From Escherichia coli (GTDB lineage: Bacteria > Pseudomonadota > Gammaproteobacteria > Enterobacterales > Enterobacteriaceae), in NCBI RefSeq assembly GCF_017348835.2, contig NZ_CP071375.1: 64,000 nt of DNA; one strand, given 5' to 3'. How positions within the stretch are numbered: position 1 is the first letter of the stretch; the number at the start of each line of letters is the position of its first letter. The notes beneath the pieces are model-generated. The model searched no databases and was not told the origin of the DNA. It worked only from the letters and a program-made list of their open reading frames with translations. Of the stretch, positions 1-27,962 are shown in pieces. Made by a program: the position numbers and the translations under genes.

Positions 1-17
1 GGCACGATAAGAAGGGA

Positions 18-1556
18 TTATTTACGTCGCTGACGCAGACTCATCAACACAGCAGCAAAACCAAACAGTGCCGTCAGCACCCACAGCGGCCAGTTGCCGG
101 TACGTGCATACGGTGTGAGTCCGGTGGTCGGCGTCACATTAGTGGTTAACACCTCGCGGGTGAACTGCGGGATCATCGCCTGAATCTCACCCTGCGGGCC
201 AATCACCGCCGTAATGCCGTTGTTGGTGCTGCGCAACAGTGGGCGCGCCAGCTCCAGCGCACGCATTCGCGCCATCTGGAAGTGTTGCCATGGACCAATA
301 GATTTACCAAACCACGCATCGTTGGAGATAGTCAGCAGATAGTCGGTATCCGGGCGGAAGTTATCGCGCACTTGCTCGCCGAGAATGATCTCGTAGCAAA
401 TAGCCGCAGTAAGCTCAATACCATTTGCCGACAGCGGCGGCTGGATATATGGCCCACGGCTGAACGACGACATCGGCAGATCAAAGAACGGTGCTAACGG
501 ACGCAGAATCGACTCCAGCGGGACAAACTCGCCAAACGGCACCAGATGGTTTTTGTTATAGCGATCGGCTGATTCGTAGCTGTACGGTGCACCTTTACCC
601 AGCGTGATGATGGTGTTGTAGGTATCGTAACGGTTCTGCTTATTAAGACGCGCGTCAACAATCCCGGTCACCAGCGTACTCCCTTTATCACGCAACTCAC
701 CGTCCAGTGCTTTGAGGAACGGTTGCTGATTAATTTCCAGATCGGTTATCGCCGACTCCGGCCAGATAATCAACGATGATTTGCCCATCAGTGGTGCCGT
801 TGCGTTGTAGTAAATCTTCAGCGTATTAAGAAGCTGGCCTTCGTCCCATTTCAGCGATTGCGGAATATCGCCCTGAACCATCGAAACCTGAATGGTTTTC
901 TCCGGTTGTGGGGTAAACCACTGGATGTAACGCAGCGGGAAGGGAAGGGCAAACAGCACGACGGCCACCACCAGCGGACGCCAGTTGCGTTTGACTAACG
1001 CCAGTGCCAGCAGGCCGCTAACCATCATCAGCAGGAAGTTAATGGCTTCCACGCCCATTAGCGGTGCCAGCCCTTTTAACGGGCCATCAATCTGGCTATA
1101 GCCGAACTGTAACCACGGGAAGCCTGTCAGTACCCAACCGCGCAGAAACTCGGTCACTTGCCAGAGAGCAGGGGCGGCAATCGCCACGCGCAGCCAGGTG
1201 GTTTTCGGCCACAGGCGCGACAGCACGCCAGCAAACAGTCCGGTATACAGCGACAAATACGCTGCCAGTAGCACCACCAGGAAGATGTTAACCGGGCCAG
1301 GCATTCCGCCAAAGGTCGCGATGCTGACATAGACCCAGTTAATACCGCTGCCAAAGAGGCCAAATCCCCAGCAAAAGCCAATAGCGGCAGACTGGAGTGG
1401 ACGGCGGTTAAAGGTCAACGCCTGAAGCCCCATCAGCGAAATAATCGCCGCAGGCCAGACGTCGTAAGGAGAGAAGGCCAGCGTTCCGCAGGCACCGAAT
1501 AATAACGCCAGCAGCAGGCGAATGCGCTGGCGTTCAATTAATGAGGCAAAAGCCAT
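18..1556 (-). CDS. lnt: apolipoprotein N-acyltransferase
   Basis: 512-aa ORF with ATG at 1556-1554; N-terminal membrane helices followed by a carbon-nitrogen hydrolase domain; sequence recognised as E. coli Lnt (CutE). Confidence 0.95.
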
Positions 1557-24234: not shown

Positions 24235-25875
24235 ATGGCAATCCACAATCGTGCAGGCCAACCTGCACAACAGAGTGATTTGATTAACGTCGCCCAACTG
24301 ACGGCGCAATATTATGTACTGAAACCAGAAGCAGGGAATGCGGAGCACGCGGTGAAATTCGGTACTTCCGGTCACCGTGGCAGTGCAGCGCGCCACAGCT
24401 TTAACGAGCCGCACATTCTGGCGATCGCTCAGGCAATTGCTGAAGAACGTGCGAAAAACGGCATCACTGGCCCTTGCTATGTGGGTAAAGATACTCACGC
24501 CCTGTCCGAGCCTGCGTTCATTTCCGTACTGGAAGTGCTGGCAGCGAACGGCGTTGATGTCATTGTGCAGGAAAACAATGGCTTCACTCCAACGCCTGCC
24601 GTTTCCAATGCCATCCTGGTTCACAATAAAAAAGGTGGCCCGCTGGCAGACGGTATCGTGATTACACCGTCCCATAACCCGCCGGAAGATGGTGGTATCA
24701 AGTACAATCCGCCAAATGGTGGCCCGGCTGATACCAACGTCACCAAAGTGGTGGAAGACAGGGCCAACGCACTGCTGGCCGATGGCCTGAAAGGCGTGAA
24801 GCGTATCTCCCTCGACGAAGCGATGGCATCCGGTCATGTGAAAGAGCAGGATCTGGTGCAGCCGTTTGTGGAAGGGCTGGCCGATATCGTTGATATGGCG
24901 GCGATTCAGAAAGCGGGCCTGACGCTTGGCGTTGATCCGCTGGGCGGTTCCGGTATCGAATACTGGAAGCGTATTGGCGAGTATTACAACCTCAACCTGA
25001 CTATCGTTAACGATCAGGTCGATCAAACCTTCCGCTTTATGCACCTTGATAAAGACGGCGCGATCCGTATGGACTGCTCCTCTGAGTGTGCAATGGCAGG
25101 CCTCCTGGCACTGCGTGATAAGTTCGATCTGGCGTTTGCTAACGACCCGGATTATGACCGTCACGGTATCGTCACTCCGGCAGGTTTGATGAATCCGAAC
25201 CACTACCTGGCGGTGGCGATCAATTACCTGTTCCAGCATCGTCCGCAGTGGGGCAAAGATGTTGCCGTCGGTAAAACGCTGGTTTCATCTGCGATGATCG
25301 ACCGTGTGGTCAATGACTTGGGTCGTAAACTGGTAGAAGTCCCGGTAGGTTTCAAATGGTTTGTTGATGGCCTGTTCGACGGCAGCTTCGGCTTTGGCGG
25401 CGAAGAGAGCGCAGGGGCTTCCTTCCTGCGTTTCGACGGTACGCCGTGGTCCACCGATAAAGACGGCATCATTATGTGTCTGCTGGCGGCGGAAATCACC
25501 GCTGTCACCGGTAAGAACCCGCAGGAACACTACAACGAACTGGCAAAACGCTTTGGTGCGCCGAGCTACAACCGTTTGCAGGCAGCTGCGACTTCCGCAC
25601 AAAAAGCGGCGCTGTCTAAGCTGTCTCCGGAAATGGTGAGCGCCAGCACCCTGGCAGGTGACCCGATCACCGCGCGCCTGACTGCTGCTCCGGGCAACGG
25701 TGCTTCTATTGGCGGTCTGAAAGTGATGACTGACAACGGCTGGTTCGCCGCGCGTCCGTCAGGCACGGAAGACGCATATAAGATCTACTGCGAAAGCTTC
25801 CTCGGTGAAGAACATCGTAAGCAGATTGAGAAAGAAGCGGTTGAGATTGTTAGCGAAGTTCTGAAAAACGCGTAA
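24235..25875 (+). CDS. pgm: phosphoglucomutase
   Basis: 546 aa from ATG 24235 ([13 protein letters not shown]); phosphoserine loop TPSHNP. Confidence 0.95.
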
Positions 25876-25895
25876 ACACATTAAATAATAAATAT

Positions 25896-25919
25896 CCTCC
25901 GGCATAGCCGGAGGTTTTT
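25896..25919 (+). terminator. pgm intrinsic terminator
   Basis: Hairpin ctccggc-ata-gccggag followed by a T5 run, 20 bp after the pgm stop. Confidence 0.65.
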
Positions 25920-26600
25920 CAAATGCGCCTATAAGGCTCTCTTACCAGCCGCGCCCTAACAGGCGCACACGATCTGACATTTGCATCCAACTTCGTTACT
26001 TACGGCCCGTAAACGGGCTGCCCGGATAGGGAATCGATAACTGCTCTACCATTTTATCCTCTTCAAGCTGGTGCTTTATGTAATCCTGTATCTTCGCCGT
26101 GTTCTTACCCACTGTATCGACGTAGTACCCTCTGCACCAGAACTCCCTGTTCCTGTATTTGAATTTCAAATCACCAAACTGCTCGTAAAGCATCAGACTG
26201 CTTTTCCCTTCCAGATATCCCATAAAGCCGGATACGCTCATTTTGGGCGGGATCTCCACAAGCATATGGATATGATCTGCACAGCATTCAGCTTCCAGAA
26301 TCCGTACACTTTTCCACTCACACAGCTTTCTCAAAATACTGCCTATTGCTCTACGCTTCTCTCTGTAGAACACCTGTCTTCGATATTTTGGCGCAAAAAC
26401 TATGTGATATTTACAGTTCCATCGGGTGTGCGCTAAGCTCTTTTCGTTCCCCATTGGGACCCCCTTTTGATTTCTTGTTTGACACTTGCAGTTGCCAGAC
26501 CGCAAGGTGTTTTAACAAATCAAAAGGGGTTTTAATAACTGGCTCAAAGCTGAAAGCTTTCCGGAACCCCCAGCCTAGCTGGGGGTTTTCTGTGCACAAG
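25920..26600 (-). mobile_element. IS200 insertion sequence (IS200/IS605 family); ends approximate
   Basis: Contains a 152-aa HuH tyrosine transposase and the characteristic IS200 5' leader hairpins; boundaries estimated to about +/-30 bp from the flanking pgm and potE terminators. Confidence 0.8.
25996..26454 (-). CDS. tnpA: IS200 transposase TnpA (HuH Y1 transposase)
   Basis: 152 aa from ATG 26454 (MGNEKSLAHTRWNCKYHIVFAPKYRR...) with HuH motif HIHML and catalytic Tyr in RGYYVDTVG; near-identical to the Salmonella IS200 TnpA from memory. Confidence 0.9.
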   Translation of the reverse strand: MGNEKSLAHTRWNCKYHIVFAPKYRRQVFYREKRRAIGSILRKLCEWKSVRILEAECCADHIHMLVEIPPKMSVSGFMGYLEGKSSLMLYEQFGDLKFKYRNREFWCRGYYVDTVGKNTAKIQDYIKHQLEEDKMVEQLSIPYPGSPFTGRK

Positions 26601-26631
26601 AAAAAGGGCGGTCGCAAGATCGCCCTTTTTT
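26600..26631 (-). terminator. potE-speF operon intrinsic terminator
   Basis: Hairpin gggcggtcgc-aa-gatcgccc with a U-run on the minus-strand transcript, 12 bp 3' of the potE stop. Confidence 0.7.
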
Positions 26632-26642
26632 ACTTTGCTTTT

Positions 26643-27962
26643 TTAACCGTGTTTATTTTTCAGTTCAAAGCGTGGTGATACCAGACCATACAGTGTCCAA
26701 CCGAGGAAGGTCACGATAGAACCGTACAGCATGGCTTCTTCCCCGGATGAGTACAGCGCATAGAAACTGTACATCGCGCCAACAAAAGCAACAAAGTTTG
26801 CAACTTTCGCTTTTGAGGGGGGCACATTAGCGACCTTTTGAATAATGACTAATGCCGCCATTGACAGAATATACGGAATGATATTGGTCACCACGGCCAG
26901 GTTAACCAGCACGTTGAACTGACTGTTTAGCGACGGGCTAATCGTCATCAGCGCCAACCCGCTCTGGATAATCACAATGGTCAACATTCCCTGCACCGGT
27001 GCATCCACTTTGGTTACACGGGAGAAAATTTTAGGGAAGTAGCCTTCATCAGATGAAGATTTAAACACCTGGGCAATGGTGAACTGCCAGCCAAGTAGCG
27101 AACCGCAGCAGGACATCACCATCAGCGCCATAATGACTTTACCCACTTCCGGCGTGAACATCTGCGCGAAGGCCAGACCAAATGGTGCCGTTGAATTTGC
27201 CAGCTCCATATTTGGCACAATCCCGGCAATCACGTTGGTGGAGACGATATAAATCACCGCCGCACCTAACGTACCGCCGAGTACCGCGATTGGCACATTA
27301 CGTTCCGGGTTTTCCACTATATCAGTATTTGCACACGCAGACTCCAGACCAAGAAAAGCCCACAGCGTCATAGCGATGGAAGAACCTACCGCACTGAAGA
27401 ACGGTGCATGATGCGGATTCCAGGAATCAACGTACAGCGTCGGGCTAAACCAGAACCAGCCAATAATGCACAGACCGACGACCGGAATAATGACCCCCCA
27501 CACGGTAATGCTACTGATTTGCCCGGTAATGCGCGCACCACCAAAGTTAGCCACGGTACAAATCCACAGCACCCCGATGGTCGCAAGACCAATCTGCACT
27601 GGCGACAAACTCGCGCCGAGCAGTTCGGTGCCGTAACCAACCGCCGAAATAGCAATCGCGACGTTAGCAATCAGCAGTGAGACGCCGTAGGTATAGTTCG
27701 CCATAAAGTTACCGGATTTACCGAAAGCATACTCGGCATAACCGCCCATACCGCCTGATTTACGGCTGAACATACCGCATTTTGCGAATGCCCATGCCAG
27801 TGCCATTGAGCCTACGGCTGTCACCAGCCAGGAGATAATTGAGATTGTCCCGACTTCGGCAAGCTTTGTCGGCAGCATGATGATACCGGAGCCCATCATG
27901 TTGACCATCGTCAGTATGGTTAACTGAACGACGCCCATTTTGTTCGATTTAGCCTGACTCAT
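26643..27962 (-). CDS. potE: putrescine-ornithine antiporter
   Basis: 439-aa APC-family transporter with 12 predicted helices; recognised as PotE; 4-nt overlap with the speF stop. Confidence 0.95.
   Translation of the reverse strand: MSQAKSNKMGVVQLTILTMVNMMGSGIIMLPTKLAEVGTISIISWLVTAVGSMALAWAFAKCGMFSRKSGGMGGYAEYAFGKSGNFMANYTYGVSLLIANVAIAISAVGYGTELLGASLSPVQIGLATIGVLWICTVANFGGARITGQISSITVWGVIIPVVGLCIIGWFWFSPTLYVDSWNPHHAPFFSAVGSSIAMTLWAFLGLESACANTDIVENPERNVPIAVLGGTLGAAVIYIVSTNVIAGIVPNMELANSTAPFGLAFAQMFTPEVGKVIMALMVMSCCGSLLGWQFTIAQVFKSSSDEGYFPKIFSRVTKVDAPVQGMLTIVIIQSGLALMTISPSLNSQFNVLVNLAVVTNIIPYILSMAALVIIQKVANVPPSKAKVANFVAFVGAMYSFYALYSSGEEAMLYGSIVTFLGWTLYGLVSPRFELKNKHG

Follow-up and report, generated by a model that had tools for sequence, protein, structure and literature searches.

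The window, meaning the whole stretch of 64,000 nucleotides of Escherichia coli DNA that was analyzed, carries a single IS200 copy, and this copy is located between the stop codons of the convergent genes pgm and potE. The features of the region are collected in Table 1. The gap between the two stop codons measures 767 bp (25875 to 26643) rather than the 768 bp given in the initial annotation, which had correctly placed an element inside it. The pgm stop codon (25873-25875) lies 11 nt ahead of the right end of the element. The same sequence is present in strains PE164 and F2_81, both of which are pig isolates; positions 25400-27100 are 100% identical to PE164, and the core at 25800-26700 is also 100% identical to F2_81. 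Because RefSeq annotates this identical sequence as pgm, an IS200/IS605 family tnpA and potE, the element was already known from public genomes.

Table 1. Features of the pgm-potE region, with positions in the window and, for features of the insertion sequence (IS), in its top strand
Feature	Window position	IS nt	Strand	Basis
pgm (phosphoglucomutase)	24235-25875		+	ORF list; RefSeq annotation of identical sequence
Complete IS200C-like element	25887-26597		-	empty-site match and end comparison of 9 E. coli copies
Right-end (RE) subterminal hairpin, CCTCCGGC-TAT-GCCGGAGG	25896-25914	684-702	.	terminator scan on both strands; fold
tnpA, 152-aa Y1 HUH transposase	25996-26454	144-602	-	ORF list; Pfam; NCBIfam; PDB
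Predicted feature opposite the tnpA 5'UTR	26446-26535		+	coordinates inferred via Salmonella/E. coli mapping in PMC4513863
5'UTR stem-loop that masks the Shine-Dalgarno (SD) sequence	26461-26529	69-137	-	inverted repeat, 16-nt arms, 94% complementary
Left-end (LE) perfect palindrome	26565-26587	11-33	.	inverted repeat search; fold
Target pentanucleotide TTCTT, flanking DNA outside the IS	26598-26602		-	immediately 5' of LE on the top strand; junction comparison
Native bidirectional intrinsic terminator of pgm and potE, A5-GGGCGGTC-GCAA-GATCGCCC-T5/6	26601-26630		.	empty alleles; terminator scan; inverted repeat; fold
potE (putrescine-ornithine antiporter)	26643-27962		-	ORF list; RefSeq annotation

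The extent of the element was determined by comparison with an empty site. The initial annotation had assigned it the span 25920-26600 and had called for an alignment of the pgm-potE region across E. coli; that alignment was run, and it supplied both the empty-site sequence and the exact ends, which lie elsewhere. The junction predicted for deletion of 711 bp was found in O157:H7, where the empty allele corresponds to the window minus 711 bp and reads ...GCGTAAACACATTAAATAAGAAAAAGGGCGG..., with three substitutions and no indels over a 260-nt reconstruction. A 2-nt AA/TT ambiguity in placing the ends was settled by the comparison of nine independent E. coli copies, which have AATAAATATCC... and ...CTGTGCAC in common as their two ends and thereby fix the span entered in Table 1. 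A 712-bp insert at 25889-26600, estimated from another empty allele (L002), was dropped because the O157:H7 allele (L007) fits 711 bp exactly. The top strand of the element is the minus strand of the window and reads 5'-GTGCACAG...GGAGGATATTTATT-3', with nt 1 at 26597. Alignment of the filled and empty alleles showed that the insertion is seamless and that a target-site duplication is absent. Terminal inverted repeats are likewise absent, as GTGCAC... at one end bears no relation to ...TATTTATT at the other. The copy is 99.2-99.4% identical at the DNA level (4-6 mismatches) to copies elsewhere that are labelled IS200C in RefSeq, and is apparently intact.

The 152-aa open reading frame was initially described as a HUH tyrosine transposase preceded by IS200 leader hairpins, and both parts of this description are borne out. 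Over its whole length, TnpA matches Pfam PF01797 (Y1_Tnp; E=4.1e-37); it scores 142.8 bits against the NCBIfam IS200 equivalog model NF033573, for which the cutoff is 55, and it aligns with the solved Y1 transposases 2ec2, 2f4f, 2a6m and 2xm3 (E=1.7e-22 to 4e-14). Residues H61-I-H63, Y125 and Q129, that is, the HUH motif and a tyrosine of the C-terminal helix followed by a glutamine four residues on, are kept and align with those of the solved homologues. Their catalytic roles are presumably those of the IS608 counterparts H64/H66/Y127/Q131. The product is identical to WP_053883487.1 in RefSeq and differs from the common IS200C transposase WP_000526135.1 by K82E and G136V, neither of which is a catalytic position. 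A second open reading frame with a family match (tnpB) was not found within the 711 bp. Apart from the orientation relative to replication, every testable feature that defines the IS200 group was present in the element.

The two leader hairpins correspond closely to those published for IS200, where the LE hairpin (nt 12-34) is a bidirectional terminator that blocks impinging transcription and the 5'UTR stem-loop spans nt 69-138 (PMC4513863). The Rfam family RF01405 (STnc490, IS200 leader) gave a full-length match at 26464-26587 on the minus strand with 146.4 bits. This match lies on the tnpA-sense strand and runs from the LE hairpin to just before the SD sequence. Ellis et al. (2015) described STnc490, or art200, as an RNA that runs antisense to the 5'UTR of tnpA; what the Rfam family represents is seemingly the leader strand and not this antisense RNA. 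At the other end of the element, the RE hairpin folds with -10 kcal/mol (z about -4.9 to -5.3); it is followed on the top strand by ATATTTATT, the 3' end of the element, and on the plus strand of the window by TTTTT. Taken together, the hairpins of the element and the native terminator have folding z-scores of -3 to -5.4. An additional 13-nt inverted repeat, TGCGCCTATAAGG / CCTAACAGGCGCA with an 18-nt spacer, is located at 25924-25967 between the tnpA stop codon and the RE hairpin, and is kept in IS1541 as well. Over the native terminator, Rfam also returned MicX and BjrC174 with scores far below the gathering thresholds; these were rejected as chance similarity of a generic terminator hairpin.

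The initial annotation held that pgm and potE each possess a native terminator and that an IS200 at 25920-26600 sits between the two, leaving both intact. Both hairpins concerned are indeed terminator-like, and the left one (25896-25914) carries a T5 tail on the pgm-sense strand, so that hairpin and tail together score as terminator-like, 20 nt past the pgm stop codon. Only the right one, placed at 26600-26631, is a native terminator; the left one is the RE hairpin of IS200. In the empty alleles (L002 and L007), the intergenic region is 55-56 bp long and contains one bidirectional terminator, the one at 26601-26630, and nothing like the left hairpin; similarly, the spacer of strain Z142-6 is 55 bp long with the single hairpin AAAAAGGGCGGTCGCAAGATCGCCCTTTTTT. 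Instead, the left hairpin recurs unchanged, together with its flanks, in the IS200C copies of eight further E. coli loci (including yebQ/htpX, potD/ymfA, ldtB/ybiR, ydcO/ydcL, mcbR/pqqU, narP/ccmH and one plasmid) and in Y. pestis IS1541, and the matches from other loci begin at about 25887, to the left of this hairpin. An arrangement with two native terminators is refuted by the empty-site alignment. Since the element extends over 25887-26597, the hairpin at 25896-25919 lies inside it and does not flank it, and the logic of the annotation has to be corrected, one of its two terminators being the element's own.

Our data place the insertion between the pgm stop codon and the native terminator, 8 nt 3' of the G+C stem on the minus, potE-sense strand, where the left end of the element adjoins the T-tract TTTTTCTT that follows the stem. 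potE retains the native stem and the first 8 nt of the T-tract. pgm is severed from its native terminator, because the hairpin that now follows it belongs to the element, and it reads into the IS-borne hairpin and T5, which would be expected to stop pgm transcripts. Neither the pgm nor the potE coding sequence is disrupted, as had been noted from the start, and the consequences for the two genes are small. The native terminator and the LE hairpin would in turn protect the transposase gene against transcription entering from outside. Two further repressors of this gene are known from IS200, the 5'UTR stem-loop and the antisense RNA art200, and the element is notoriously dormant (PMC4513863).

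The distribution of the insertion was examined in 5,426 complete E. coli genomes. The pgm-potE spacer is uninterrupted in 3,164 genomes, shows the K-12 type junction into ybfP in about 2,000, and carries IS200 in 30, of which only 2 have an allele identical to that of the window. These counts agree with the initial view of a variable spot whose IS200 copy is not found in all E. coli and make the copy lineage-specific, and the initial statement that K-12 differs here was also correct, in that K-12 MG1655 has ybfP and the pseudogenes ybfG and ybfI between pgm and potE. Among the other 28 carriers, three genomes were aligned (L004-L006); in these, the IS lies 3 bp further left at both junctions, in the same orientation. 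The remaining 25 were assumed to carry this shifted allele, given their uniform 97.7-97.9% identity. Over the 711 positions, the aligned copies of the neighboring allele, also IS200C, show 9-11 differences from the window copy, and the window copy shows 4-6 from copies at other loci. Judged by these sequences, the two alleles are best explained by two separate insertions, both into the T-tract of the same terminator. In K-12-type alleles, the ybfP-ybfG-ybfI island lies on the opposite side of the same terminator (L003, 6490-6640 and 8140-8215); pgm retains the original hairpin, potE has a second, diverged copy (AAAGGGCGATCATTCAATCGCCCTTTTTT), and REP-like sequences are present at both edges of the island. 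With this island added to the two IS200 insertions, E. coli has apparently seen three or more separate events at the pgm-potE spacer.

The absence of the element from most genomes could also reflect loss. IS200/IS605 elements excise seamlessly, which makes an emptied site indistinguishable from one that was never occupied (PMC2806898), and the copy might thus be an old resident, with empty sites arising by precise excision and both filled alleles descending from one ancestral insertion that later diverged. This history is very improbable given that just 30 of the 5,426 genomes carry the element, while 3,164 are empty and about 2,000 contain an unrelated island, that the two filled alleles are offset by exactly 3 bp on both junctions, and that the window copy is nearer to copies at other loci than to its neighboring allele. 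A further possibility considered was that tnpA is not part of a mobile IS200 but a REP-associated tyrosine transposase (RAYT) that has been domesticated, as RAYTs are likewise Y1 enzymes that act on hairpins and TnpA shows weak similarity to the NCBIfam model REP_Tyr_transpos (E=1.3e-6). The score for that model is 28.3 bits, far under its cutoff of 80, compared to 142.8 bits for the IS200 model; in addition, tnpA belongs to a separate unit of 711 bp bounded by IS200 ends, its presence at pgm-potE is polymorphic, and IS200-like sequences were found in 3,096 genomes, being multi-copy in many strains with up to 35 places in one genome. The RAYT identity was rejected, and we regard its probability as negligible. 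The reading that accounts for these observations, to which we assign a probability of roughly 0.93, is a complete and seamless IS200C-type insertion at 25887-26597 in the bidirectional pgm/potE terminator site. The copy, which the window shares with two pig isolates, replaces the pgm terminator by an IS-borne one and looks like a neutral marker of the strain.

The position of the insertion is typical of the element. At all nine E. coli sites, the LE is preceded by a G+C hairpin (-12 to -24 kcal/mol) and then a T-rich run ending in TT. One genome per species was scanned for the 21-nt LE hairpin, which gave at least 120 loci from Yersinia, Vibrio, Brenneria, Dickeya, Edwardsiella, Oxalobacter, Mailhella/Desulfovibrio, Bacillota, Peptococcaceae and Saccharibacteria genomes or MAGs. 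Among the matches listed, a hairpin with a T-rich tail was detected by a folding-energy criterion in 115 of 118 unique LE flanks (97.5%), compared to 3.8% of random positions in the same loci (Mann-Whitney p = 6e-67). This criterion was substituted for a strict perfect-stem detector, because many stems carry a mismatch or bulge; with the strict detector, 72 of the 118 flanks (61%) among the matches listed still qualified, compared to 1.3%. The last five target bases in the 47 full-length copies with both flanks, again among the matches listed, were T(47) T(39) A/T(17/22) T(45) T(47), which gives the consensus TTWTT. The target used here is TTCTT and the 3' end of the element is TTATT, so that the target resembles the 3' end of the IS. 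As TTATT equals the usual target, insertion regenerates the pentanucleotide at the junction.

Several further features of these sites were observed. Convergent genes flank the element at eight of the nine IS200C sites in E. coli; only potD/ymfA departs from this. At ydcO, mcbR and narP, the annotated coding sequence runs 1-5 nt into the IS before it ends, and its stop codon seems to have been preserved. The opposite strand of the pgm/potE terminator also offers a hairpin followed by TTTTTT. The 21-nt LE hairpin CCCCCAGCTAGGCTGGGGGTT is identical in very distant phyla (Saccharibacteria and Bacillota MAGs; Mailhella), although contamination of MAGs is possible, and the 12-nt tip of the element varies by lineage (GTGCACAG, GTGCCCAG, GTATAGAG, GGTTAAAAG and GTGAAACG). 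Many matches to the LE hairpin are located at contig ends, as expected of repeats that break assemblies. In Dickeya undicola (L084, about 680-730), the LE hairpin is located between inverted copies of the IS tip, in the arrangement GTCTATAGAAAA-hairpin-TTCTATAGACAA, which suggests a palindromic left end that remained on its own, or a miniature derivative, rather than a full element.

The association with terminators might be a matter of survival only. If the element inserted at any TTWTT without recognizing the hairpin, copies downstream of genes would be harmless and would persist. The family paradigm, IS608, requires only a tetra- or pentanucleotide target (PMC7290912), insertions past convergent gene ends are the least harmful, and hisD984, the single classical IS200 insertion in a gene, demonstrates that genes can be struck (PMC4513863). 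Purifying selection elsewhere could account for part of the hairpin association. As the whole explanation we consider it unlikely, since it does not readily accommodate the geometry of the sites. The hairpin occupies a narrow distance, with the stem ending 3-10 nt upstream, in 97.5% of the LE flanks listed, compared to only 26% of TTWTT sites in general that are preceded by a hairpin. The asymmetry of strand and end is complete; of the 47 full-length copies with both flanks among the matches listed, 46 qualify on the LE side and none on the RE side. Promoter-side intergenic T-runs are essentially unused by IS200, and the pgm/potE terminator received two independent insertions 3 bp apart. The asymmetry of end and strand, together with the narrow spacing, argues against selection alone.

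A tentative alternative to survival only, which we hold to be possible but short of even odds, is that transposases of the IS200 group pick their targets by structure, with a single-stranded terminator mimicking the right end of the element and the element being pasted 5-11 nt past the stem. In the family paradigm, a TnpA dimer acts with subterminal hairpins, guide bases 5' of the hairpins pair with the cleavage sites, and insertion occurs 3' of the target (PMC7290912). By analogy with IS608 and ISDra2, the IS200 top strand would be excised as a single-stranded circle and pasted into a single-stranded target 3' of TTWTT. Each of the two hairpins has an A-run directly on its 5' side (GAAAA for the LE, GAAAAA for the RE), and these runs could, by the same analogy, serve as guides that pair with the T-rich cleavage sites. 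A terminator, with its A-run, G+C hairpin and T-run, looks like a copy of the right end of the IS. The target hairpin may be recognized by TnpA, or it may just keep the T-run accessible. If structural targeting proves true, it would amount to a hairpin-assisted rule that holds almost universally across phyla, unlike the rule for IS608 and ISDra2 with their bare tetra- or pentanucleotide, and it would explain the harmlessness and insulation of IS200 copies.

The orientation relative to replication was considered for this one copy. By synteny with K-12 (pgm on the plus strand at 0.71 Mb, right replichore), the top strand of the element is apparently on the leading-strand template, which is opposite to the bias of the family, where the top strand lies on the lagging-strand template (PMC5371812). 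The GC skew of the window is weakly positive, too weak and too locally dominated by gene strand to fix the direction of replication. The neighboring insertion present in 28 genomes has the same apparent leading-strand-template orientation.

Overall, the insertion is a low-impact placement of a known element and a clean illustration of the occupancy by IS200-type elements of sites just past terminators. It is of relevance for the lasting harmlessness of IS200 elements, for typing with IS200 sites as markers and for IS200 target choice. Like IS200 and IS200C of Salmonella and E. coli, the element consists of a lone tnpA for a Y1 HUH transposase of ~152 aa within about 707-711 bp, without inverted repeats or target duplication, and with the LE hairpin, the 5'UTR stem-loop and the RE hairpin. 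It differs from common IS200C in the two TnpA substitutions and in its rare locus, the exact allele being present in 2 of 5,426 genomes.

The element is also similar to IS1541 of Yersinia pestis and Y. pseudotuberculosis, which has the same 21-mer LE hairpin and the same RE hairpin with the ATATTTATT end, and both lie just after terminator-like stem-loops. Such stem-loops were reportedly proposed as hot spots for IS1541 insertion by Odaert et al. in 1998. The two elements differ in their tips, which read GTGCCCAG in IS1541 and GTGCACAG in the window, and in copy number, which is much higher for IS1541, with tandem copies in Y. pestis. In the tandems of Y. pestis NCTC5923 (L086, about 260-370; L087 and L089, two matches 710 nt apart), the left end of one copy directly follows the ...GGAGGATATTTATT of another. 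Either IS1541 can insert at its own right end, or what is seen is a circle or tandem junction that has become fixed.

With IS608 and ISDra2, the element shares the Y1 fold, as shown by the alignments with 2a6m and 2xm3, as well as subterminal hairpins, insertion 3' of a short sequence adjoining the LE, and a target that resembles the 3' end of the IS. In contrast to the element described here, IS608 and ISDra2 carry tnpB, and their targets, TTAC and TTGAT, are used without a reported adjacent hairpin, whereas the T-rich TTWTT of IS200 is found nearly always after a G+C hairpin. Group IIC introns offer an analogy only; they are described as typically located downstream of an inverted repeat followed by Ts (PMC1702495), and thus occupy a niche just downstream of an intrinsic terminator motif that follows the same low-harm logic. 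Unlike IS200, they are RNA-based retroelements with an unrelated mechanism.

Searches of the full-text literature returned no explicit statement on IS200 target choice except a 2025 preprint on terminator enrichment, in which terminator-like sequences were over-represented upstream of ISs, most strongly for the IS200/IS605 family. Together with the 1998 proposal reported for IS1541, this preprint already leans towards targeting of this kind. The preference for terminators is not new in kind and appears to be partly published. How strong and how widespread the association is, and the reading of the terminator as a mimic of the right end, may, with modest likelihood, go beyond the published work.
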